Source: a virus (taxonomy: Duplodnaviria > Heunggongvirae > Uroviricota > Caudoviricetes). Taken from it: 64,000 nt of DNA. The stretch is taken from IMG/VR virus record IMGVR_UViG_3300031418_000001. One strand, written 5' to 3'. A program made the translations under genes and the position numbers. The notes below the pieces were generated by a model, which saw only the letters and a program-made list of their open reading frames with translations, was not told where the DNA came from and did no database searches. This document shows positions 170 to 56,744 of the stretch, one piece after another. Position 1 is the stretch's first letter. Every line of letters begins with the position of its first letter.

Positions 170-874
170 TTAGAAAGATATGTAATATCCGGTATCCCCT
201 GCGACACTTTTTGCAAGCTCAGTAAATTCTAAAATTTCATTAGCGTCTTTAGGAACTGTATCAAATATAACTGATACATAACCTACAACTCTTGTTGAAA
301 TTACAGGAACGGAAACAACATATCTTGCACCATCCATGTATAAAGAATTTAAATTTACAGGTGATAGGTATTCATCTCTTACTTCGCTGCCAGGTTTTAA
401 GTACTCTGTCAAAACTTGTTTAAGATCTGCGGTAAAAATCTTACCTTTTAATATTAAACGCATTTGAGCAGATAGAGCACTAATAGGCAACCATTTGATA
501 TTGTACTTATTGGGATTGATTTTTGAATTAAGTTGAGCACCACTTGTAACCAGAATACGACCTTGATAAAACGTATCATGATCTGGTACGAACTTGTACA
601 CTGCGATCATACATATACGTTGGTTAATATCCATATACGAACGTGCAGATTGTTGTATATTGTCAATATTCTCCTTAGATATATTTAAGTCTTTTGGAAT
701 ATAATATTCAGTTCTTGTAGCATTTTCCACACTTACATGAACAAAAGTACTTATACTATCTTTGGTTATAAAAAGAACATACGCTAATACAGCAATTAAC
801 GCAACCAAAATAATTTTGGTATTAGTTACTTGTGAGGCAAATTCAAGGGCTTTTGTAATAATTGTATCGAACAT
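170..874 (-). CDS. Putative holin (T4 gpT-like topology) or other single-pass membrane protein
   Basis: 234 aa, one N-terminal TM helix (IILVALIAVLAYVLFI), soluble domain ending YVVSVPV..GYVSVIF (GAF-like); size and topology resemble T4 T. Confidence 0.45.
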   Translation of the reverse strand: MFDTIITKALEFASQVTNTKIILVALIAVLAYVLFITKDSISTFVHVSVENATRTEYYIPKDLNISKENIDNIQQSARSYMDINQRICMIAVYKFVPDHDTFYQGRILVTSGAQLNSKINPNKYNIKWLPISALSAQMRLILKGKIFTADLKQVLTEYLKPGSEVRDEYLSPVNLNSLYMDGARYVVSVPVISTRVVGYVSVIFDTVPKDANEILEFTELAKSVAGDTGYYISF

Positions 875-959
875 GACCTTATATCCTCTGTCTTATTTTT
901 ATAATAATATTTACCCAAAAGAGTATATTTATTAAGGTACTTGTAAGATAAATCTTATG

Positions 960-988
960 TGAAACAAAAACAATTTGTGTGCTATACT
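960..988 (+). promoter_or_regulatory. Phage promoter motif TGAAAC-N16/17-TATACT (copy 1 of at least 12)
   Basis: tgaaacaaaaacaatttgtgtgctatact; also at 8332, 15035, 16430, 34029, 37643, 38439, 44164, 53220, 57553, 57817, 63898, each upstream of a gene or RNA. Confidence 0.85.
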
Positions 989-1002
989 AAAGGAAACGAA
1001 AA

Positions 1003-1494
1003 ATGGCAAAAATGATTCTTTGTACTGATGAGAATAACGGTCTTGGGTATAAAAATACAATTCCGTGGCATAGTAAAGATGATTTCCAGCATTTTAAAAA
1101 TAGTACTATTGATTCTATTGTTGTTATGGGATTCAATACGTGGAAATCATTGCCTAAGCGACCACTGCCAAGCCGTTTAAATGTAGTACTTGTAAGTCGT
1201 CCATATATGGAGCGTCCTGATACAGAATATGGTATGAATGCTATTTTTCTTCCACAGGATAATCTGAAAGATATAATCAATAATAATCCAGAATGTATTA
1301 TCATCGGTGGTTACTGGACATACTTACAAGCTAAGCCATTTGTTAATGAAATAATTAAAAGTACTGTAATAGGTATTTATGATTCAGATGTGTTTTTTGA
1401 TATTAAAAAAGAATGTCCTGATTTTCAGGTTCAACATTCAAAAGTACTCAATGATGGAACATTAGTGGAGTACTATTTAAAAAAGGGAAGTTAA
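1003..1494 (+). CDS. frd: Dihydrofolate reductase
   Basis: GLGYKNTIPWH..DDFQHFK, VVMGFNTWKSLP.RPLP.RLNVV, IIGG and D.FF DHFR motifs. Confidence 0.95.
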   Translation: MAKMILCTDENNGLGYKNTIPWHSKDDFQHFKNSTIDSIVVMGFNTWKSLPKRPLPSRLNVVLVSRPYMERPDTEYGMNAIFLPQDNLKDIINNNPECIIIGGYWTYLQAKPFVNEIIKSTVIGIYDSDVFFDIKKECPDFQVQHSKVLNDGTLVEYYLKKGS

Positions 1495-3253
<1,759 letters not shown>

Positions 3254-3254
3254 T

Positions 3255-3578
3255 ATGATTAAAAGTATAGAAGTTGGTGAAGTTAAAATTGTATACAGCC
3301 AGGTATCTTTAAAAGAATATCTGCATGACTATGCACGATTCAATTTATATGAACCCATTCATAAGCAATGGGCTGATATATACAAACTCCCTGCATATGG
3401 TCGTATTATATACATCTATCATGAATCAAACGATTCGTATGGTTCTTCTATAGAACATGAAGGTGGATTTTTAATTCTTGAACCTGATGAAGTTGTCATA
3501 GACAGACATGCAGACCTGAAAGAGTTCTGTTTGAACAATCTTGATAGAATAATTCACGCTGATCCTGATGAACGATAA
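3255..3578 (+). CDS. Hypothetical protein
   Basis: 107-aa ORF in tandem gene order. Confidence 0.7.
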   Translation: MIKSIEVGEVKIVYSQVSLKEYLHDYARFNLYEPIHKQWADIYKLPAYGRIIYIYHESNDSYGSSIEHEGGFLILEPDEVVIDRHADLKEFCLNNLDRIIHADPDER

Positions 3579-3616
3579 ATAAAGGAAAGTACTATTATCT
3601 TTTGGAGATCAAAAAA

Positions 3617-4150
3617 ATGAATAACCTATTTAACGCATTTAGTATCAAAGTTAGTGGTCAGAATCTTGACAATCTGAAGTACTTCCAGTATGAAGACTTC
3701 GATGCTGAGAGTCTTCCTACTGATGCTGAAACTTTAGCAAAAGCAGTAGCATACATCCGTATGCGTCATATTCAACGTAAACTGAGTGAACTAAGTGTTC
3801 CTGTTTATAAAGAAGTATATTTCGGTACTGAGGGTACAGCTAAAACTGTTCCAAGTGCTGCTGAAATTGTTGTATCTTATATTAGTATCGAACCTTTTCT
3901 AAGTACTTTAGAAACTGCACCTGCTGAAGCAGATCGCTTTACTGCTGCTGCTGATGTACTTAAAGGTATTGTAGTTGAAGCACTTGGTGCTGATATTAAT
4001 GAACTTGTTGAAGTACAAAAAACTTCTACTCGTGAAGAATATGCTGGTGCTGCATCACAGGAAACTTTCTCAGACGTTCGTAATGTGTACGTCGATGCCC
4101 CAGCAGTAACCCCGACAGTTACAGTTGAATATTTGCAAATTAAATCATAA
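3617..4150 (+). CDS. Hypothetical protein, possibly virion-associated
   Basis: GGAG RBS, Ala-rich, ATAAATA late-promoter-like sequence upstream. Confidence 0.7.
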   Translation: MNNLFNAFSIKVSGQNLDNLKYFQYEDFDAESLPTDAETLAKAVAYIRMRHIQRKLSELSVPVYKEVYFGTEGTAKTVPSAAEIVVSYISIEPFLSTLETAPAEADRFTAAADVLKGIVVEALGADINELVEVQKTSTREEYAGAASQETFSDVRNVYVDAPAVTPTVTVEYLQIKS

Positions 4151-4173
4151 TTTTAGAAAGGATACCTATTGAC

Positions 4174-4362
4174 ATGGAAAGCAAGAAATACTACAATGAA
4201 ATTCTCGATGATACTGCGACCGTTGATAAAATGATCGTGCATCTGGAAAACATGATTAAAGAAGCTCCAAACGCACGGACTCGCAGCCTCGCAGAGTCTA
4301 CCTTGGGGAATATCAATTTGATTATTGCGATTTGCGAAGAACTTAAAAAACGTAATCTATAA
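4174..4362 (+). CDS. Hypothetical protein
   Basis: 62 aa with AAGGA RBS. Confidence 0.65.
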   Translation: MESKKYYNEILDDTATVDKMIVHLENMIKEAPNARTRSLAESTLGNINLIIAICEELKKRNL

Positions 4363-4387
4363 AAATATTTGGAGTTATAAGACTTAT

Positions 4388-4897
4388 ATGAAACAAATCA
4401 TTGCCAACGATAATATTACTGCATCACAAGTACGTTTAGTTCATGATGGAGTAAATGAGGTAATGGATCTTGAAGATGCACTCAATATTGCTTATTCACA
4501 TGATCTTGATCTGGTGCAGATTTCGGAAACAGACGTACCGGTAGTAAAAGTACTGGATTTGAACAAATATGCTTATGAGTTAAAACAAGCTCAGAAAGCA
4601 AACGATAAGAAACAACGTACAACTGCAACGCAAGTTAAGGAAGTACAATTTAGTACTGATACTCATGAAAATGATTTAAATGTTAAACTTAAAAAGGCAC
4701 AAGAATTTATTTCAGGTGGTAAACAAGTTCGATTGGTAATGAAAGTTATAGGTCGTATTAATTCTAATAAAGATGTACTTCAAAAAAGTATTTCTAAAAT
4801 GAATGATTTTGTAGAACGTCTCAATAATGTTGATTTTGTCCAAAGTACTGCGGTACAAGGTAACAACATTATTTGTACTGTAAAAGCTGGAAAATAA
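4388..4897 (+). CDS. infC: Translation initiation factor IF3-like protein
   Basis: NDNITASQVRLV..G..M...ALNIA...DLDLVQI...PVVKVLD..KY, KEVQF, END...KL..A..F..G..V; ATG start after GGAG RBS. Confidence 0.9.
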   Translation: MKQIIANDNITASQVRLVHDGVNEVMDLEDALNIAYSHDLDLVQISETDVPVVKVLDLNKYAYELKQAQKANDKKQRTTATQVKEVQFSTDTHENDLNVKLKKAQEFISGGKQVRLVMKVIGRINSNKDVLQKSISKMNDFVERLNNVDFVQSTAVQGNNIICTVKAGK

Positions 4898-4949
4898 TAC
4901 ATAATGGGGAATTTAATTATTCCCCTTACTTTTTTGAGGTAAAAGGCAA

Positions 4950-5498
4950 ATGGATAAAGAAAATATCAAACTAACTACTTTTGATACTTCTCCACAGAAA
5001 GTAATGTGTGCGGAGTATAAAGATTCTAAGTACTTCATCATGAACGGTAAATGTATCAATGATGCAGTAAATCGTATTCATGGTGAACTGGATCATGTAG
5101 ACATTCATGTAATGCAAAATGTATTGAATGTTTATCTGGAAGAAAACCCTGAAGATGATCTTGTTTTTATTCCTTTATATCGTTTAGTACTACTTGACGA
5201 TCCAAAAACAACCATTGATTTTGTTGAAGGTTTCTGTCGTGATCTACTTGGCTTTAACCGCCGTCGCAGTATGCAAGTAGTTAACGAACTTAACTCAGAC
5301 AACGGTGAAGCTGATGTTGGTGCGTACACTTATGAAATCGTTAATACTTTGTCTCGCTTCCTTGACAATGGTAATTACCAGTTCAATCAGAATTTGGGAT
5401 ACCGTATTGATGAAGTAACACAAGATCAAAAAATCACATTCGATACTAATGTTGCACTCCAGCAACTGATCGAACGTGATTACCCTGAAGATCTATAA
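4950..5498 (+). CDS. ClpS-like adaptor protein with N-terminal extension
   Basis: PLYRLVLLDDPKTTIDFV...F....SM....N..GEADVGAYTYEIV follows the ClpS core pattern. Confidence 0.7.
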   Translation: MDKENIKLTTFDTSPQKVMCAEYKDSKYFIMNGKCINDAVNRIHGELDHVDIHVMQNVLNVYLEENPEDDLVFIPLYRLVLLDDPKTTIDFVEGFCRDLLGFNRRRSMQVVNELNSDNGEADVGAYTYEIVNTLSRFLDNGNYQFNQNLGYRIDEVTQDQKITFDTNVALQQLIERDYPEDL

Positions 5499-7668: not shown

Positions 7669-8295
7669 ATGGAACGTACAAACGAAGATATTAAATTATG
7701 GGCTAATATAGTTCAAAATGCAGAACTTGAAAAAGATATTGAAGATGCTGAAGGTCAGACTGTTATCAGTACGGGTCGCCAGGAACTTGATGAAATGCCG
7801 ATGGTACATGATATATATGATGGTGATCGTGAGGATGCTGACGCCACGTTAGGTTTTCAAACTGATGGCCTGGACTCATCTAAACTGGTTCCTGTAGCCG
7901 ATCATGGTGCGTTCAAGACCTTCCGTAACCCACGCGGCGATGCCTACCTTGCCTATGACCAAAATGGCAAATGCATTGGTCTGTTACGTGGATCTAAGAC
8001 AGGTACTATATTACAGGTTGATAATACTATTTCATATAGTCAATCAGGTGTGAAAGGTGTAATGTTTAATCTTTTTATGGATTGTATTTTACAAGGTAAT
8101 AAGATTATCAGTGATGTTACACAATCTCCTGATGCAAAAAACTTTTGGCAAAGATTAATTAGTACTGGACATATTGTATATGTAGTAGTTTACGGTGAAG
8201 TTAAAGGTAAAGCTACTCCACAAAATATGGAAAAGCTATGGACTAATGATATCGAAAATGATGCTGCTGATATTCGGTTATTACTGGTGAAATAA
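7669..8295 (+). CDS. Hypothetical protein, GNAT-like fold
   Basis: IISDVTQSPDAKNFWQRL motif typical of phage GNAT-like proteins. Confidence 0.5.
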   Translation: MERTNEDIKLWANIVQNAELEKDIEDAEGQTVISTGRQELDEMPMVHDIYDGDREDADATLGFQTDGLDSSKLVPVADHGAFKTFRNPRGDAYLAYDQNGKCIGLLRGSKTGTILQVDNTISYSQSGVKGVMFNLFMDCILQGNKIISDVTQSPDAKNFWQRLISTGHIVYVVVYGEVKGKATPQNMEKLWTNDIENDAADIRLLLVK

Positions 8296-8396
8296 ATAAA
8301 AATGGAGTACTTAGGTACTCCATTTTTTTTATGAAACAAATCTAAAAATGTGCTATACTATAATGGCTAAGAAACAAAATAAGGAAATCAAATAAA

Positions 8397-10370
8397 ATGG
8401 CAAAGGAAAAGAAAAATTCTTCCGTACTTCAGGAACATGACGTTCAGCGGTTATCGGATTATTCACATGCTCGTATTCGTACTGAAATGTACTTAGGTTC
8501 TCGTTCTGCTCATGAACAACCAGTTTTGATTTTTGGCGAAAATGATTATCAAGTCAAAAATGTAACATGGGTTCCTGCACTACTCACCGCATTTCGTGAG
8601 ATTGTTGATAACTCGTTAGATGAATTTACTAAAGCTGGTATTAAAGATGCAGTGCTAAGAGTACAATACGACGAAAGTACTTTACAGTTTATTATTTCAG
8701 ATAATGGTCGTGGTATTCCAATTGACTATGTTCCTGAATATAGTCAGCATGTGTGTACTATGGTACTTACTGAAACTAAAACAGGTCGTAACTTCGACGA
8801 TTCACAACGTAAGAAAACATCAGGACAAAACGGCCTCGGTGGTTCAATTACTATGTGTGTTAGTTCTGAAGCTGAATTAGAAGTACATCGTGTAGGGCGT
8901 CCATATAAAACTGCATCAGCAAATGATGAATATAATGGGATGTACAAATTTACACAGAAGTTTAGTGAAGGTAATGAACTGTTTCCTGAACTTAATATTC
9001 AAGACCCTGTTATTCGTAAAGTAAAAGCTGATAAAACAGGAACAACTATTAGTTTCCGTTTAAGTCCAGCGGTATTTAAAAATCGTCAGTTACCAACTGA
9101 ACTGATTTATAGTATTCTGAAAGAAATTGCTGTTGCTAACCCAACATATAAAATCTTCCTGAATGAAAATCGTATTCAGGGACGTGGTACAGCAGAAAAG
9201 GCACTGTTCGGTATTTCTAAACCTATGAGTCTTGTTGTTGACGAAGGTGAATTCCACAGTACTTTCTATGTAGTGCCTAATGCAGTAGCAGACCAAACTA
9301 CAAACTTCCATATGCACGGTATTGTTAACAACGTTCCTGCATTTGACGGTGGTAATCACTTAGACACCTTTAAAAAGAATTTTGCACTTGGTGTTATTAC
9401 TGCACTTGAGAAAGAATCAAAGAAACGTAAACTAAAGCCTAACCGTTCTGATGTTGAAGAAGGTCTTTTGATCTATAACATTACTACGATGAATGCTCCG
9501 TACTTTTCTTCTCAGACAAAATCTAAACTTATTAACGAAGAAGTAATTAAACCAATTGCTAATGCAATGAGTGTTGAGTTCTATGATGAACTTGTCAAGA
9601 AAAACAAAACTTGGATTGATGAGATCTTTGAACGTACTTCAGAACGTACAAATAAGAAAGAAGCTGAAGAAGATCGTAAAGCTGCTAAGAAACTACTAAA
9701 GGCTAAAGTTGCTAAACTTCGTGATGCAGTTAATACAGATCGTTCTGTATGTGAACTGTTTATTACGGAAGGTGATTCAGCAAGTGGTAACTTAATTGCA
9801 AGTCGTGATCCGACTAAACATGCTATTCTTCCATTACGTGGTAAAATTAAATCAGTAAATGGTAAAGAAAAAGTAGCAGATTTGATGGCATCCGAAAGCC
9901 TCAAAGATATTATGGTAAGTATTAACCTGATTCCAGGCGAGAAAGCTGTTCGTGCAAACCTAAACTATGGTCGTATTAATATCAGTACTGACTCAGATGA
10001 AGATGGTAAAAATATTCAAGCACAGATTTGTAATTTTCTTTATACATTCTGGCCTGAATTATTCCAAGATTTAGACAATCCGTTTGTTTATATCTTTAAC
10101 ACTCCATTCATTATCCTGAAGAAAGGAAAACAAGTTAAGTACTTCTATGGTCATCAAGAACATGAATATAATCCTGATGATTGGAAGGATTGGGAAACAA
10201 CACGTGCTAAAGGGTTAGGTACTCTTAAGAAAGAGCACTTTGAAGATGCAATCTATAGTGGTTATACACTTCCTATTGTTGATGATGGTACTCTATCTGA
10301 AGTACTTGATTTAATCTTCAACTCTGACCGTGCTGATGATCGTAAAGAATGGATGAAAGACAAAGAATAA
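8397..10370 (+). CDS. Type II DNA topoisomerase large subunit (ATPase + TOPRIM; gp39+gp60 fused)
   Basis: RTEMYLGS, EIVDNSLDE, DNGRGIP, GQNGLG, TEGDSA, PLRGK, TDSDEDG, KGLGT. Confidence 0.95.
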   Translation: MAKEKKNSSVLQEHDVQRLSDYSHARIRTEMYLGSRSAHEQPVLIFGENDYQVKNVTWVPALLTAFREIVDNSLDEFTKAGIKDAVLRVQYDESTLQFIISDNGRGIPIDYVPEYSQHVCTMVLTETKTGRNFDDSQRKKTSGQNGLGGSITMCVSSEAELEVHRVGRPYKTASANDEYNGMYKFTQKFSEGNELFPELNIQDPVIRKVKADKTGTTISFRLSPAVFKNRQLPTELIYSILKEIAVANPTYKIFLNENRIQGRGTAEKALFGISKPMSLVVDEGEFHSTFYVVPNAVADQTTNFHMHGIVNNVPAFDGGNHLDTFKKNFALGVITALEKESKKRKLKPNRSDVEEGLLIYNITTMNAPYFSSQTKSKLINEEVIKPIANAMSVEFYDELVKKNKTWIDEIFERTSERTNKKEAEEDRKAAKKLLKAKVAKLRDAVNTDRSVCELFITEGDSASGNLIASRDPTKHAILPLRGKIKSVNGKEKVADLMASESLKDIMVSINLIPGEKAVRANLNYGRINISTDSDEDGKNIQAQICNFLYTFWPELFQDLDNPFVYIFNTPFIILKKGKQVKYFYGHQEHEYNPDDWKDWETTRAKGLGTLKKEHFEDAIYSGYTLPIVDDGTLSEVLDLIFNSDRADDRKEWMKDKE

Positions 10371-10395
10371 TATTACCCGATAAGGATATCAAATA

Positions 10396-11790
10396 ATGGC
10401 TAAAGCAACTAAGAAACCAATTGTACAAAGACAAGAAAACCGAACTTATCTAAAAGAACCAAGTTCAACTTATATTAACCGTACAAGTCTCGAATATAGT
10501 ACCTATACTCTTGAACGTGCACTTGTCGGTATTGATGGGCTGAAGTCAGCCCAACGTAAAGCAATCTATGCAATCACCAAAACTAATGGTAAAATTAAAA
10601 CCCTTAGTCTTGCTGGTAAAATGATCGAAATGGAAATCTATGTTCACGGTGATAGCTCGGCGAGTGGTACACTTTCACAACTCGCATCGCCTGTAGTGAA
10701 TAACTATCCATTGATTTTAGGTGAAGGTTCCTTTGGTACTTGTGCCTCACCTGAACCAGCAGCACCACGTTATACGTATGTTCGTAAATCAAGCATTACC
10801 GAAAAACTACTTTTACCGGATTTGAATATTATCCCAATGAAGGATAACTATGATGGTTCAACACAAGAACCTCGTTATTTCCTTCCAATTGTTCCGGTCG
10901 CATTGTTAGGTACTGATGGCATTTCAGTTGGTTATAAACCTTCTATTTTACCTCGTAAGATTGAAGATATTATCGACAATACCATTGCAGCAATTGATAA
11001 GAAAGAAATGAAATTCATGACTCCATATTATCGTTCATATGGTGCTAACGATTTTGTTGAATATCTCGGTGAAAGTAAGTACATCATTTATGGTAAAGCT
11101 GAAGTTATTGATGGAAGTACTGTACGGGTTACGGGATTACCACATAAGATTGACCGTGAGAAATTTATTGAGAAATTGATTAAGATGCAGGATACTGGTG
11201 AGATTCGTGATTATGATGATTCCAGTACTGACGTAATTGATATTACCATTAAAATGCCTCGCGGTGCAGCTAACGGATGGGATGAAGCAAAAGTACTTAA
11301 TTACTTCTCATTGCACAGCAAAGTTACCGAAGCAATTATTTGTCTAAGTGAGAATGAGAAAGTTCGTACTTATGTTGATCCAAATGATTTAATCCGTGAT
11401 TACGTTGAATTTCGTTTTGGTTATTATGTCAAGCGTTATGAAAAATTACTTCAGGACGCATCTGATGAACTTCGTTATAAACTTCTCATCAAAGAGTGTT
11501 TTGATAATGAAATTCCAGCTAAACTTAAATCATTAAAGAACCGTGCTGAATTAGTACAATCAGTTACTGAATTGAATGAAGTAATCCAGGCATCAAAAGG
11601 TAACATTGATAATATCGTTAGCTTCCCATCCTATCGCTGGACTGAAGAATATTACGATGCAGTACTAAATGATATTAATGAGTTGGTTACGTCAATTGGT
11701 AAGTATGAAAATATGCTACAGAACCAAAATCTAATTTGGGATGTATACCGTGATGAGCTAAAAGAACTGCGTAAAACCAAGTTTGAATAA
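10396..11790 (+). CDS. Type II DNA topoisomerase medium subunit (gp52/GyrA-like)
   Basis: DGLKSAQRK, YVHGD, GSFG, AAPRYT catalytic Tyr. Confidence 0.95.
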   Translation: MAKATKKPIVQRQENRTYLKEPSSTYINRTSLEYSTYTLERALVGIDGLKSAQRKAIYAITKTNGKIKTLSLAGKMIEMEIYVHGDSSASGTLSQLASPVVNNYPLILGEGSFGTCASPEPAAPRYTYVRKSSITEKLLLPDLNIIPMKDNYDGSTQEPRYFLPIVPVALLGTDGISVGYKPSILPRKIEDIIDNTIAAIDKKEMKFMTPYYRSYGANDFVEYLGESKYIIYGKAEVIDGSTVRVTGLPHKIDREKFIEKLIKMQDTGEIRDYDDSSTDVIDITIKMPRGAANGWDEAKVLNYFSLHSKVTEAIICLSENEKVRTYVDPNDLIRDYVEFRFGYYVKRYEKLLQDASDELRYKLLIKECFDNEIPAKLKSLKNRAELVQSVTELNEVIQASKGNIDNIVSFPSYRWTEEYYDAVLNDINELVTSIGKYENMLQNQNLIWDVYRDELKELRKTKFE

Positions 11791-11794
11791 AAGA

Positions 11795-11822
11795 AAAAAG
11801 CCCCTTACATAAGGGGCTTTTT
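11795..11822 (+). terminator. Rho-independent terminator
   Basis: aaaaagcccctta-ca-taaggggcttttt. Confidence 0.85.
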
Positions 11823-11824
11823 CA

Positions 11825-11832
11825 TATAAATA
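11825..11832 (+). promoter_or_regulatory. T4-type late promoter TATAAATA
   Basis: Exact TATAAATA ~30 nt upstream of a large structural-looking gene. Confidence 0.6.
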
Positions 11833-11863
11833 TCTGTAACATTCGAATGTTGGAGATATTTAT

Positions 11864-14257
11864 ATGGCTAATTTTAGTCCTAAGTGGGATTTAGTACTTG
11901 ACAGTACCACAATAATTGAAGGTCAAAGTACATACGCACGATTACGTCTATCTAAGCAAAGCAGCATAGATCCTAATTCCGATTATAATTTAAATACAGA
12001 CCAGTACTTACAGATTAGCTACACTATTAATCTAAACGGTGATGCAGTACAGGAAAGAGATTACAACATTTATGTTGGTGAAAATATCACATCCTTAATG
12101 CCTATGGCAGACGCTGGTACTGGTAATAATAAAATAAACGGAACACACGTAGTCAAATTTAATAAAAAAGAATTCAATCTAAGTTCTGATTACTTAGATA
12201 CCTATTTTATCGAGATTGTTTGTCCAGAAGATGGAATATGGGATGATTCACAAAATATATCTATTGTACTGAATTCAGTACAGTTGTATCAGGTAGATGG
12301 TGAACAAATACTTTCAATATCTGATAGTGGTATTATAGGTAACAGTACCGTCAAACTGTTATATGATAATACATTTGACACTTGGGTTACACCAGATTTA
12401 ACTACTCACCAAACAAATTTGTATACTATTGGTGAAGTTGCATACGGTTCAGAAAGCAGACTCTTTATTCAGGCTTATGGTTTCTCTCGGCCTTATGTTG
12501 AGAATGAAGACCGATTCATTGATGATCTATCAAATCGGGTTTTTGTTCCAACCTATAAACTCATTGATCTTGATATTGCTGCTATACCAGCTAACCATAT
12601 GACAGGTAAAGGTACAGTACTTAAACTTGACTCTAATGATGTAATATCCGAAGAAATGAAAGTACTTGTGATGGATGACACTACAAGTTTCGTAGATAGT
12701 GGATTAAAGTTTAATGGTAATGGTCAATTACTACAATCTTTATTATATGACTCAGAACCAGTTGATGCTTATTTTAAAGCAGAAATTGTCCCATTAACTT
12801 ATTATTATGCAGATCCATCTTCAGCATATTATGAAGGTAAAAGATTTAAAGCATATCAGATGTGGATTGCTCCTGATGACGTTTCGGTATTTGCAGAAAC
12901 ATCACAGCCTAAACCTGGTCATTTGTATCAACTTAAAGATACAAAGATATACCCGTATGTGGCAAAAACAGAAATCTATCAAGGTGAGTCTAAACTTATA
13001 TTTGATGAATCAGCTTGGAACGATTTAGGTGTATATTCAGAAAGTATGGGTGCATCTATTATTGGATTACAAAAAGTATTCAGAATAGTACTTAATAATG
13101 ACGATGGTTCAGGAATCAGCTTTGATACTGATCCTAATTTGGGTGTTATTCATGTAGGTGAATATTTTGGACATTCTAAATTTGCTAAAATTACTGCAAG
13201 TGGTTCAGACTTAATAACTTATACTATTAGTGATAAGTCTACTGATGATATTACAAAGTACAATCTGAACCTTACTGCTGATGGGTACATGGTTGGTACT
13301 GCATATTGTAAGACAATTGATTTTGATGAGAATGATGAAGTACCTTTAAAATTTACTGTAATAGCAACGAATAAGAAAGGAACTTCAATTGAACAGGAAT
13401 TCCAATTAACTATTATTCCAGGCTTTAGCCAGAATTACATTAGTAGTACACTCAATATGAGTACTGCATTTGAACGTAAATATTTTCAGTGCATTAGTTC
13501 GCAACAGTTTAACAACTACAAGTTTTACCGTGAATCAGACCCGCGTTATGGAAGACAAAAAGTACCTTCAATTCTGTTGAAAGAAAACTTTGTTAATCCT
13601 GCACAAGATTGGACTGATATTAAAGATGTTAAGAAGCGTTTACGTGATGGTATTATAGACACCGTTAATGGTGCTGTTATTCCTGATAGTGTGTTTCAGT
13701 ACGTTGTAGGTAATTATAAGGTAATTACTGCTGTTGATAACAACGGTAATGAATTATATGATGTACTTTACAGAGAAATGCTTCCATTTGGTTCAAATCC
13801 AAAACCAGAAACTGACCCAAGAAAATACAACGTTCAAGATTATTTCACATTAACTGAAGTATTCGGTATTCGTCAGAACGTTTTCAATATTCTCGGTGAA
13901 GATGTAAGGAATTTGAATGCAGATCCAGATGACTTCGAAAATCGTGCGGTAAGTGTTCCTGAACTCGATAACGTGAGTGTGGCAATGGTAGACACAGTAC
14001 CACGCTTTATGTCTCATGCTATGACGGATACAGGCGTTAAAAACGGCTATCGTCCTATGATGGTAGTTGCGTACTGTAATGCAGGTGAGGGTGATTTATT
14101 ATTTGATAACTTGGTTACATCATCAGAACATAAAAATATGTTAGGTGAAATAATTGAGGTACAGGTAGTGAACTTTACCTATTTCAGTGAAGAAGAAGGA
14201 AAGTATATTCAACAAGAATTTGCTATTCCTATCCCATTTAAATCACTAATGGCATAA
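11864..14257 (+). CDS. Putative virion structural protein (baseplate/tail-like)
   Basis: 797 aa, beta-rich, Ig/cadherin-like segment (GYMVGT..FTVIATN..G), late promoter upstream. Confidence 0.55.
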   Translation: MANFSPKWDLVLDSTTIIEGQSTYARLRLSKQSSIDPNSDYNLNTDQYLQISYTINLNGDAVQERDYNIYVGENITSLMPMADAGTGNNKINGTHVVKFNKKEFNLSSDYLDTYFIEIVCPEDGIWDDSQNISIVLNSVQLYQVDGEQILSISDSGIIGNSTVKLLYDNTFDTWVTPDLTTHQTNLYTIGEVAYGSESRLFIQAYGFSRPYVENEDRFIDDLSNRVFVPTYKLIDLDIAAIPANHMTGKGTVLKLDSNDVISEEMKVLVMDDTTSFVDSGLKFNGNGQLLQSLLYDSEPVDAYFKAEIVPLTYYYADPSSAYYEGKRFKAYQMWIAPDDVSVFAETSQPKPGHLYQLKDTKIYPYVAKTEIYQGESKLIFDESAWNDLGVYSESMGASIIGLQKVFRIVLNNDDGSGISFDTDPNLGVIHVGEYFGHSKFAKITASGSDLITYTISDKSTDDITKYNLNLTADGYMVGTAYCKTIDFDENDEVPLKFTVIATNKKGTSIEQEFQLTIIPGFSQNYISSTLNMSTAFERKYFQCISSQQFNNYKFYRESDPRYGRQKVPSILLKENFVNPAQDWTDIKDVKKRLRDGIIDTVNGAVIPDSVFQYVVGNYKVITAVDNNGNELYDVLYREMLPFGSNPKPETDPRKYNVQDYFTLTEVFGIRQNVFNILGEDVRNLNADPDDFENRAVSVPELDNVSVAMVDTVPRFMSHAMTDTGVKNGYRPMMVVAYCNAGEGDLLFDNLVTSSEHKNMLGEIIEVQVVNFTYFSEEEGKYIQQEFAIPIPFKSLMA

Positions 14258-37681: not shown

Positions 37682-37771
37682 GGAGAGTTGGCAGAGTGGT
37701 CTATCGCAAACGCCTACTAAGCGTTCGGGGAGTCAAATCCTCCGTGGGTTCGAATCCCACACTCTCCGCCA
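37682..37771 (+). tRNA. tRNA-Ser(ACT)
   Basis: GGAGAGT/ACTCTCC acceptor, G73-CCA, long variable arm, anticodon arm aacgc-ctACTaa-gcgtt, GTTCGAATC T-loop. Confidence 0.9.
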
Positions 37772-38657: not shown

Positions 38658-39083
38658 ATGACAAGAAAAGTTAGTTCTTCAATAAAGTTAACGTATAAAG
38701 TACTTTTAAATAATAAAAAGAACTTCATAACGAAGGATCTAAAGCATTGGAATGATTATAGCTTCGGTAATTACATTACTTTGGCTACTTATAAAGATTA
38801 TGAGATTGAAAAGAGAAATTCAGATCATTATAAAATACGCTTAAGTCCGTACTTTGGACTTTCATTCAAAAATGATACGAATGAATGTCAGATACAGACA
38901 AGAAAATTTGGAGAACCAAAGTCACATTACACCTACATTGATTTGAATATCACTACACGTGATGAATTCTTTAATCATATGATGTGCAATGATATTGGTA
39001 CTCTAACGTTTGAAGATTTAGAAGTACTAAAACAAATTAAAAATTTAACTCTTAAAATTATAAAAGGAAATCTTAATGGCTAA
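38658..39083 (+). CDS. Hypothetical protein, F(N/Q)-motif family
   Basis: ITTRDEFFNHMMCND..LTFEDL. Confidence 0.7.
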   Translation: MTRKVSSSIKLTYKVLLNNKKNFITKDLKHWNDYSFGNYITLATYKDYEIEKRNSDHYKIRLSPYFGLSFKNDTNECQIQTRKFGEPKSHYTYIDLNITTRDEFFNHMMCNDIGTLTFEDLEVLKQIKNLTLKIIKGNLNG

Positions 39084-39705
39084 AATGACACTTACCCAAG
39101 CATTAGTTGAACTGAAAAAACTTGATTCACAGATCAAACGTAGTACTTCGCAGCAGTTCATCGGGTACGTTACCGGTTCAGGTATTTGGGAAAAAACAAG
39201 TGATCGTCGTCATGCTGATAAAGCACAGGCAGAGAAAGCATATCAAGCTGCACTTGACCAAGTACAGTCACTGATTACTCGCCGTACAACTATCAAGAGT
39301 GCTGTTGTTCAGGCTAACGCTACCACTAAAGTAAAAGTTGGTGATGTAGAAATGACTATTGCGGAAGCAATTGAGCGTAAGAACAGCATCAGTATTCAGC
39401 AATCCCTTTTGGGTACACTGATTAAGCAACATGCAGAGGTTGTTAACACAGTAACCCGTCTGGATCACCAGACCAATACTGAAATCAGTCAGCTTCGTGA
39501 AACACTGTCAAGTACTGGTAAGCTGGATGATACCAAACTGAAGCAGGGTTCAGAAGACATTATGACCAAGCAAAAGGCATCACTTGTTGATCCTAACAAG
39601 CTGTCTGACCTGATTGACAAACTGACTGCTGAAATTGAAGATTTCCTGTCAAACGTTGATGTTGCACTGTCTGTAGCTAACGCTACAACCGAAATCGACG
39701 TGTAG
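39076..39705 (+). CDS. Coiled-coil protein (resembles DIP1984/DUF6847-type family) linked to downstream ncRNA
   Basis: MTLTQALVELK.L...I, IKSAVVQANA.T, MTIAEAI.RK, LVDP, IE.F...VD.ALS..NA.T.I; family name from recall, unverified. Confidence 0.7.
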   Translation: MAKMTLTQALVELKKLDSQIKRSTSQQFIGYVTGSGIWEKTSDRRHADKAQAEKAYQAALDQVQSLITRRTTIKSAVVQANATTKVKVGDVEMTIAEAIERKNSISIQQSLLGTLIKQHAEVVNTVTRLDHQTNTEISQLRETLSSTGKLDDTKLKQGSEDIMTKQKASLVDPNKLSDLIDKLTAEIEDFLSNVDVALSVANATTEIDV

Positions 39706-39711
39706 TAATTT

Positions 39712-40075
39712 TCTGGCACGAGAGTGCCAGATTAGTTAAGTACTTTGGCGTATCTACTGACGAGCCAAACAATCACAGTTCTGTATTACCAGCGGAACTG
39801 AAACTACTGGTGAACTATAATGGTTTATTATACTATACATATAAATGATTCCTTTTGGTGGTTGGGGCCAACCTAATCAACCACCGTAACGATCAACGAT
39901 GTAAAGTTTAACTTTTATAAGTTTAAAGATTTATAAGTTTAAAGTTATAAAGTTCCAAAGTTTAACGTACTTAGAGATTCTTCAAATCCTTGGTATTCGG
40001 GAACGGTAACGTGTGATTCTGACCTGGGCTTGCGACAAGGCTGGTAACATAGGTCAAAGTACTTTATTAATCTGG
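39712..40075 (+). ncRNA. Structured ncRNA with internal AA(A/C)G(T/A)T repeat tract
   Basis: 23-nt closing helix 39727-39749/40053-40075, internal hairpins, pseudoknot 39786-39792/40041-40047, terminator 40088-40110. Confidence 0.75.
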
Positions 40076-40130
40076 TACAAAAAATACAAAGCACCTAAAT
40101 GGTGCTTTTTCTATTTCAAAGGTACACTAA

Positions 40131-44893: not shown

Positions 44894-45204
44894 GGCCCCT
44901 TAGCTCAGTTGGTTAGAGCAGGCAACTCATCAAATGGTGACTTTTATCAGTAATGATAATTGAAAAACTGGATGAATTCAGGGAAACCTCAGCACGTAAT
45001 GGTGGTGGCAACCGTGAGCCAAGCCTGATAAGCGTATCAGGAAGGTGCAGAGACTAAATGGTGCAACACGTTCTTGTTGCGTAATACATTGTTAGCGTCC
45101 GGCACCCTAACTATTATAGAAGGGTGGTGATATAGTCCGTACCAGTATGAAAATATTGGATAAATCGAATTGCTTGGTCACAGGTTCGAGTCCTGTAGGG
45201 GCCA
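44894..45204 (+). tRNA. tRNA-Ile2(CAT), split by a group I intron (exons 44894-44930 and 45168-45204)
   Basis: Joined exons give GGCCCCT/AGGGGCC acceptor and ggcaa-ctCAT|aa-ttgct arm; closely resembles enterobacterial tRNA-Ile2. Confidence 0.9.
44931..45167 (+). mobile_element. Self-splicing group I intron (IC3-like, 237 nt)
   Basis: P1 CAU|C:GGUG with U.G at the splice site, GCAGAGACTA and GATATAGTCC core elements, terminal G. Confidence 0.9.
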
Positions 45205-56511: not shown

Positions 56512-56730
56512 GGGGCATGTTCCAAGAGGGTCGATTGGGCGAATAAACTATGAACGTCGCTGGCGTAAAAGCCGTCTGTTAACTGAATCACTGAATGTCT
56601 CAGAAGCACCTATAGCGGCCTGACAACAGGCGGGGAGAAACAAGCAAGGGAAGCGTAGTCTAAGGTGAGGAAGGCGTATAGCGAGAGTTATACGTAGCAG
56701 AAAGTACGGGTTCGAATCCCGTATGCTCCA
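56512..56730 (+). ncRNA. ssrA: Compact tmRNA (219 nt)
   Basis: GGGGCAT/ATGCTCC-A acceptor with G3.U70, T-arm acggg-ttcgaat-cccgt, TAACT then tag frame ESLNVSEAPIAA* (56585-56623). Confidence 0.7.
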
Positions 56731-56744
56731 CAAAAGGAATAACA

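Follow-up and report, generated by a model that had tools for sequence, protein, structure and literature searches.

Here, we analysed a 64,000-nt stretch of viral DNA (Caudoviricetes; IMG/VR record IMGVR_UViG_3300031418_000001), called the window in the following, in which the gene of a small helical protein is directly followed by a dedicated non-coding RNA of ~350 nt on the same transcript. Together, they constitute an uncatalogued two-gene unit. The RNA (39724-40078 in the window, ~355 nt) is closed and structured, is real and is under selection for its structure. It is firmly supported that it represents a widespread structured RNA family, which is genetically locked to one protein family. 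The protein plausibly binds the short repeats presented by this RNA, and we assign a probability of roughly 55% to the reading that both assemble into a ribonucleoprotein, with dimers of the protein sitting on the repeats.

An initial annotation, made from the letters of the DNA alone, had noticed a TAG-TAA double stop followed by a block free of open reading frames (ORFs) and ending in a terminator. This was confirmed, the terminator stem being located at 40088-40108. The ~400 nt 3' of the gene hold no conserved ORF, and the 407-nt block folds with -122.9 kcal/mol compared to -86 ± 5 kcal/mol for shuffled sequences (z = -7.4). We compared it with a close family of seven relatives with 61-83% protein identity, taken from metagenome contigs and from Xanthomonas phage XaC1, the nearest deposited relative (67% identity over the locus). 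A gap of ~430 nt is kept in all seven, and its non-coding part is ~80% identical and thus better conserved than the gene. In this family, 95.8% of the cells of the pseudoknotted structure pair, compared to 30-46% with slid partners, compensatory changes are found in 12 pairs, and both pseudoknots keep 100% pairing along with compensatory changes. A covariance model (R1) built only from the close family and used with 332 positions found full-length matches in phage T5 (E = 1.6e-9) and in five further families. In the resulting alignment, 95.4% of the cells pair (31-46% with slid partners, the fairer yardstick for an alignment fitted to its model), and double changes occur in 26 of the 33 modelled pairs, including all 12 modelled pairs of P1, its inner ones. 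Covariation, named in the initial annotation as one of the checks of its proposal, was hence found for the closing stem as well as for the pseudoknot stems, both as compensatory changes and against slid-partner controls. The closing stem turned out to be longer than the 23 nt first assumed, and the two proposed hairpins (39777-39799 and 39857-39885) are real with compensatory changes in each, the position of the latter not being conserved across families.

The RNA is doubly knotted. The first knot is a local H-type pseudoknot, for which the initial annotation had correctly recognised that the loop TTACCAG (39786-39792) is knotted, but had placed its partner at 40041-40047. The loop is indeed complementary to this distant site. 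The comparative data, however, pair it with CTGGTGA at 39807-39813: an A-to-U change in the loop of XaC1 is matched by a compensating change at the near site (CUGGAGA), but by none at the far site, for which reason we reassigned the pairing and ruled out the long-range alternative. The far site is instead part of the family-invariant box B and of P1b. A knot of the same geometry, built from unrelated sequences, is found in T5, Vibrio phage pVp-1, E. coli phage Av-05, the loci L029 and L066 and others; a search for it reached a score of at least 12 in 23/77 sequences compared to 5/77 shuffles. The second, long-range knot arises as P5 crosses P2 and P3. P5 (AAAUCC-NNN / N'N'N'-GGCUG, 5 bp) is paired in 32/32 diverse sequences and broken in none, with all four Watson-Crick pairs occurring at two of its columns and its strands lying ~52 nt apart. 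For P2, equivalents were seen by eye in L029 (ACGCGUC/GAUGUGU) and L067 (ACGCUUC/GAGGUGU).

Table 1 Elements of the gene-RNA unit and their positions in the window
Feature	Position	Strand	Remarks
Gene of the 209-aa helical protein (P0001)	39076-39705 (39076..39708 in the feature list)	+	TAG-TAA double stop
Hairpin CUGGCAC-GAGA-GUGCCAG just 3' of the stop	39713..39730	+	from sequence; arms co-change in L009 and XaC1
P1, closing stem	39724-39749 / 40053-40078	+	25 pairs, 95.9% paired, 5 double changes (close family)
P1b, UACU/GGUA	39755-39758 / 40043-40046	+	double changes in 3/4 pairs across families; invariant in close family
P2, CGAGCC/GGCUUG	39761-39766 / 40027-40032	+	long-range; 100% paired; one compensatory change, C-G to U-A
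P3, AAUCAC/GUGAUU	39771-39776 / 40013-40018	+	two compensatory columns (CA/UG to UG/CA), in L009 and XaC1; support from the close family
H-type pseudoknot, overall	39777..39813	+	loop 1 of 2 nt, no loop 2, A-rich 7-nt loop 3 (GAAACUA)
S1 of H-type pseudoknot	39777-39783 / 39793-39799	+	one compensatory change
S2 of H-type pseudoknot	39786-39792 / 39807-39813	+	one compensatory change
Variable hairpin GGUGGUUG/CAACCACC	39857-39864 / 39878-39885	+	GGUGG/CCACC changed to CCUGG/CCAGG or CGUGG/CCACG
Array of ~14 heptads, consensus U-Y-A-A-(A/C)-G-N, largely unpaired	39886..39983	+	chain parse
Box A (AAAUCC) and P5 5' strand (CCUUG)	39984..39992; P5 strand 39988-39992	+	covariation
3' segment	40013..40046	+	P3 and P2 3' strands, P5 and box B, P1b 3' strand
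P5 3' strand (CAAGG) and box B (GGCUG)	40036-40040; 40039-40043	+	covariation
Intrinsic terminator closing the unit	40088..40113	+	stem 40088-40108, then T run; kept in relatives

Between the variable hairpin and box A lies the most distinctive part of the RNA. The repeat tract had initially been described as ~11 units with a spacing of 6-10 nt; the tract is real, but consists of 13-14 heptads. The program TRF reports 8.4 copies of the unit TAAAGTT at 39902-39965, and the spacing of consecutive AAG triplets has maxima at 7-8, 14-15 and 21-22 nt. Parsing the tract as a simple chain with box A as the anchor, we found 13-14 units spanning 90-101 nt in 29/37 distinct sequences, compared to about one unit in shuffled tracts. 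Tract lengths cluster near 91 and 98 nt, i.e. 13 x 7 and 14 x 7, and phages of Proteobacteria and of Bacillota share one heptad consensus. Such a constant number of units would argue for a fixed stoichiometry or geometry rather than for an open-ended sponge. Three candidate roles of the heptads were rejected, as each fits only some units or hosts: complements of the anticodon loop of the lysine transfer RNA (tRNA-Lys), complements of the 3' tail of 16S ribosomal RNA (rRNA), and slippery heptamers for frameshifting.

The gene and the RNA occur together far beyond the close family. A clustered protein search yielded 244 relatives of the protein, and 745 phage records contain it, among them T5-like and rV5/PVP-SE1-like phages, phages of Bacillus, Lactococcus and Clostridioides, and jumbo phages of Erwinia. 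Downstream of the gene in pVp-1, Av-05 and T5, at least 360 nt are left unannotated, and this gap contains a like repeat tract and the two conserved boxes. Inspection of the DNA downstream of homologues, which had been suggested as a check, revealed an array of at least 9 units, located 90-300 nt past the stop codon, at 62/78 distinct phage loci compared to 4/78 on the opposite strand, and several of the array-negative phage loci retain P5. Taking one representative genome per bacterial species, the protein is encoded at 93 loci, and the array is present in 73 of the best 80 of these. An exact-pattern scan of viral contigs with a motif from the window gave no match.

Many of the bacterial copies reside outside of prophages. 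On two complete chromosomes of Bacillus altitudinis, the pair lies between the genes of an amino-acid permease and a subtilisin-type protease, beside a phosphotransferase system operon, and no phage genes were found within 9 kb of it. For the identical protein sequence of this species, the index of the collection lists 337 blocks; seven species of the B. pumilus group, in which the pair is embedded in ordinary chromosomal genes, show near-identical spacing between gene and array, and a Lysinibacillus copy is located 3' of a gene coding for a transporter of the major facilitator superfamily. P1, the knot, the array and P5 are all present in the Bacillus RNA, in which the usually invariant C-G pair of P5 is changed to U-A (CUGGG/CCCAG). 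As the pair occurs with these elements at chromosomal sites unrelated to phages, the module is self-contained and cellular as well as viral.

In phages, the module usually lies within a tRNA cluster; tRNA genes occur within 2 kb at 36/60 loci and in all 36 cases on the same strand as the protein gene. The tRNA gene often lies directly 5' of the protein gene, or directly 3' of the RNA in the place of the terminator. Further observations were made at individual loci. The phage contig L067, which carries the module, also contains a predicted ochre-suppressor tRNA (anticodon TTA; 765-837). In Paenibacillus xylaniclasticus (L101), a skipping-rope RNA (RF02924, 54 bits; 2519-2647) follows directly 3' of the heptad RNA, so that two orphan RNA motifs stand back to back. 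On a ~239-kb contig of the Bacillus cereus group with phage-like genes (L183), the protein gene is followed by 3.3 kb without called genes (9627-12908), probably the heptad RNA and a tRNA cluster.

Phage T5 (L099 in our viral collection) allowed a look at expression. Here, the module comprises the gene T5.085 and the 360-nt gap, which is unannotated in the reference record although eight other 'stable RNAs' are annotated there; the predicted RNA spans L099 7968-8324. Thirteen RNA-labelled sequencing runs contain the T5 stretch, the usable ones all as assembled contigs. In an RNA immunoprecipitation sequencing (RIP-seq) run, L099 7965-8330 is represented by separate contigs with a word depth of 831-5490, compared to 328 for the gene and 477 downstream, and an adapter abuts position 8330, 3 nt past the second stop codon. 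In a run depleted of rRNA, an adapter abuts position 7980. One T5 RNA-seq run (X10) has gene and RNA on one contig, and a run available as raw reads (X24) contained no T5 reads. These observations are suggestive of a discrete T5 RNA of ~366 nt. The RIP-seq data probably stem from studies on defence reverse transcriptases using T5, so that the phage RNA would be background there.

The protein matches phrog_1491 end to end (E = 5.7e-57, residues 1-209 of a 211-position profile). The label of this family, 'tail fiber protein', is not credible, because its gene neighbours are early and tRNA genes and no tail domain scores above threshold; it probably originates from a weak likeness to DUF4376 (E = 0.007, below the cut-off). 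This label has spread through hundreds of phage annotations and is corrected here. An AlphaFold model (predicted local distance difference test, pLDDT, of 87) shows long helices packed into a bundle that has small beta tips, in which two invariant N-A-T-T motifs each end a helix; Lys/Arg residues are conserved at positions 14, 70, 74 and 102. The initial annotation had likened the protein to DIP1984/DUF6847, which proved weakly right. DIP1984 (3KDQ) is the top structural match and the only one to stand out, with Z = 10.8 (next entry 7.9) and a root-mean-square deviation of 8.6 Å over 150 residues, bearing in mind that helical bundles reach middling Z-scores by chance, and Foldseek gives a probability of 1.0 (E = 0.011). 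The profile comparison with 3KDQ reached E = 0.45, and Pfam DUF6847 (PF20935) stays below its gathering threshold (13.4 bits at a cut-off of 27, E = 0.076). Our protein is ~55 residues longer, and as DIP1984 has no known function, the match does not explain one here; NCBIfam and the ESM Atlas provided no functional lead either. A homodimer, the only assembly modelled, was predicted with a score of 0.69 (best of three controls: 0.00), the mark for this score being reached by 20/30 proteins solved as one-chain pairs and by 1/23 solved as single chains. Contacts agree by at least 98% between runs and the pLDDT of the partner is at least 90. The prediction supports self-association of the protein.

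How might the two components act together? The RNA would be cut from the messenger RNA (mRNA) or from a tRNA-operon transcript, with its 5' cut just past the stop codon and its 3' end provided either by the terminator or by RNase P, whose cut at the 5' end of a following tRNA would also generate the 3' end of the RNA at tRNA-flanked loci. P1, which clamps the RNA ends, would protect them. The co-encoded protein, probably as a dimer, may then line up along the heptads, each protomer binding one of them, and build a ribonucleoprotein of fixed size on the array. We favour a generic role related to RNA or translation over a purely phage-specific one, because the module is used by tRNA-rich lytic phages and by cells of Bacillota alike. 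The most specific version of this idea, a new class of ribonucleoproteins of tRNA-rich phages and Bacillota, in which a doubly knotted RNA with 13-14 heptads would be lined by dimers to give a fixed-size particle acting in a tRNA- or translation-related process, is put forward tentatively and we rate its chances at somewhat below even.

Several points weigh against a ribonucleoprotein of this kind. The protein family is mildly acidic (median isoelectric point 5.7, net charge -2), which counts somewhat against a classical RNA-binding protein, and the Pfam and NCBIfam searches of the protein found no known RNA-binding domain. A two-fold dimer, as modelled, has no obvious fit to 13 units. The adjacency of gene and RNA could reflect co-transcription or cis-regulation only, and at ~15% of the loci the array escaped our crude detector. 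P3 was checked in the close family and P2, by eye, in one further family, and the T5 contigs prove neither ends nor strand nor level of the RNA, a carry-over of DNA being possible.

Some of these points would equally suit an RNA that functions on its own, with heptads that either bind a universal cellular partner (ribosome, tRNA, RNase or a further RNA-binding protein) or pair with other RNA molecules of the same kind, while the protein is a helper or simply co-transcribed. We regard this as possible, yet rather unlikely. A heptad consensus shared between phages of Proteobacteria and of Bacillota is as compatible with a conserved host target as with a co-evolving phage protein, and the acidity of the protein as well as the co-oriented tRNA genes at 36/60 phage loci point in the same direction. 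There are also precedents in GOLLD and ROOL, large phage RNAs which, as reported in PMC12286853, assemble without protein and occur beside tRNA genes. On the other hand, gene and RNA stay together in very distant lineages as well as at chromosomal sites outside of phages, which would be difficult to account for if they had nothing to do with each other, and no partner sequence emerged, with the complements of the tRNA-Lys loop and of the 16S 3' end, as judged from the sequences, misfitting across hosts.

The ribonucleoprotein reading also has to be weighed against a cis-acting element in the 3' untranslated region, which would stabilise the upstream mRNA or mediate autoregulation by the protein without any function of the free RNA. 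In its favour, as in that of the main reading, a search for promoter-like sites between gene and terminator detected none; gene and RNA share a single contig in the T5 run X10, and the hairpin just 3' of the stop codon competes with the outer part of P1, as its 3' arm also forms the outermost 7 nt of the 5' strand of P1, making the two alternative structures. Nevertheless, ~350 nt with two pseudoknots and an array of fixed length far exceed what the protection of an mRNA end demands and the RIP-seq contigs suggest a separate, more abundant piece of RNA, so that we consider a purely cis-acting role improbable.

The initial annotation had offered a repeat-RNA antitoxin as an alternative, in analogy to type III toxin-antitoxin systems, where a toxic protein is kept in check by the repeat RNA. 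This proposal received no support and we deem it very improbable. The module does share with ToxIN the combination of a protein gene and a tandem-repeat RNA, found in phages and at varied chromosomal sites. However, type III systems (ToxIN, CptIN, TenpIN) have repeats of ~34-45 nt upstream of the toxin gene with a terminator in between, whereas the repeats here measure 7 nt instead of ~36 nt and lie downstream of the gene. The protein is a helical bundle of different fold, without a match to endoribonucleases of the ToxN/AbiQ type or to other defence families in Pfam and PADLOC, and the module keeps the same chromosomal place in the two B. altitudinis genomes and its spacing in the seven species of the B. 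pumilus group. An element acting at the DNA level, for instance an iteron-bearing origin or a set of repeats bound by protein, might be suspected from the AT-rich tandem repeats, but is of negligible probability given that the helices covary and accept G-U pairs, which can form in just one of the two strands, that a strand-specific terminator or tRNA follows, that the repeat signal is itself strand-specific (62 compared to 4 of 78) and that the region is present in RNA libraries.

The RNA belongs to no catalogued family. Rfam 15, including tmRNA (transfer-messenger RNA), RNase P RNA, GOLLD, ROOL, 6S and Y RNA, gave nothing at gathering score in the region of the window, where the best sub-threshold matches were terminator-like small RNAs (sRNAs; E = 0.07 or worse), and no family matched over the equivalent region of 34 related loci (20 phage, 14 bacterial), in line with the novelty claimed initially. 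A tmRNA-like molecule was rejected, as a tRNA-like end is missing and neither ARAGORN nor Rfam matched. Boxes A and B (AAAUCC-NNN / N'N'N'-GGCU) resemble the consensus of the P4 strands of RNase P RNA; this candidate was likewise dismissed, since the other conserved regions misfit, the strands are only ~52 nt apart and no Rfam score for RNase P was obtained. Mimicry of a T-loop by UUCAAAU in front of box A was discarded as well, the preceding bases being unconserved.

Among known systems, the TRAP protein and the trp leader RNA of Bacillus, with 11 G/UAG triplets wound round an 11-subunit ring, offer an analogy for a fixed number of short single-stranded repeats at even spacing, each of which could conceivably be held by one subunit. 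In contrast to TRAP, the repeats here are 13-14 heptads (UYAARGN) instead of triplets with spacers of 2-3 nt, the protein is a helical bundle and predicted dimer instead of a beta-sandwich ring, with no TrpBP match in Pfam, and the RNA forms a closed molecule of its own with two knots instead of an attenuator leader. GOLLD (RF01998) and ROOL (RF03087; phages and Firmicutes) are comparable as large structured orphan RNAs that are often found in phages beside tRNA genes, but our RNA has no match to their covariance models, is smaller (~350 nt), carries an array of repeats and is invariably accompanied by a protein gene of its own. OLE RNA of Bacillota (~600 nt), which is encoded beside the genes of its partners OapA/B/C, is similar as a large non-coding RNA next to genes of its own protein partners, while it shows no likeness in sequence or structure, lacks a heptad array and has unrelated partner proteins. 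The sRNAs of phage PAK_P3 (~100 nt) are different from the heptad RNA. In the literature on DIP1984, DUF6847, T5.085, non-coding RNA of T5 and RNAs of phage tRNA clusters, we found no description of the module; among the 10,006 candidate RNAs catalogued from viruses (PMC10690425), there could be an unnamed fragment of its RNA. Bacterial and phage RNAs of such size and conservation without known function are rare, and here a dedicated orphan protein comes along. The fixed-length heptad array provides an unusual and specific structural clue, and the presence of the module in T5, a model phage, and in Bacillus species that can be cultured renders it testable by genetics and biochemistry. Its position inside phage tRNA clusters ties it to what such RNA gene clusters do beyond supplying tRNAs.

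The window itself looks like part of a jumbo phage, with 15 tRNA genes in the same orientation, numerous small ORFs on the plus strand and a group I intron. Directly upstream of the protein gene, a 141-aa ORF (38658-39083) overlaps its start by 8 nt, which suggests translational coupling of the two. This ORF is present in close relatives and absent from distant phages, and therefore lies outside of the conserved module. Just 3' of the RNA, a gene of the peptidyl-tRNA hydrolase PTH2 is found in L009 (4110-4496) and L001 (4344-4754), i.e. in XaC1 and a 350-kb relative, while unrelated small ORFs occupy this site in the window. The group I intron is located at 44919-45159 on the plus strand (Rfam RF00028, 76.6 bits). 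Among the ARAGORN predictions are a tRNA with the four-base anticodon gaga (56650-56731), possibly a frameshift suppressor or an odd tRNA, and a tRNA-Ser with the unusual anticodon ACT (37682-37771).

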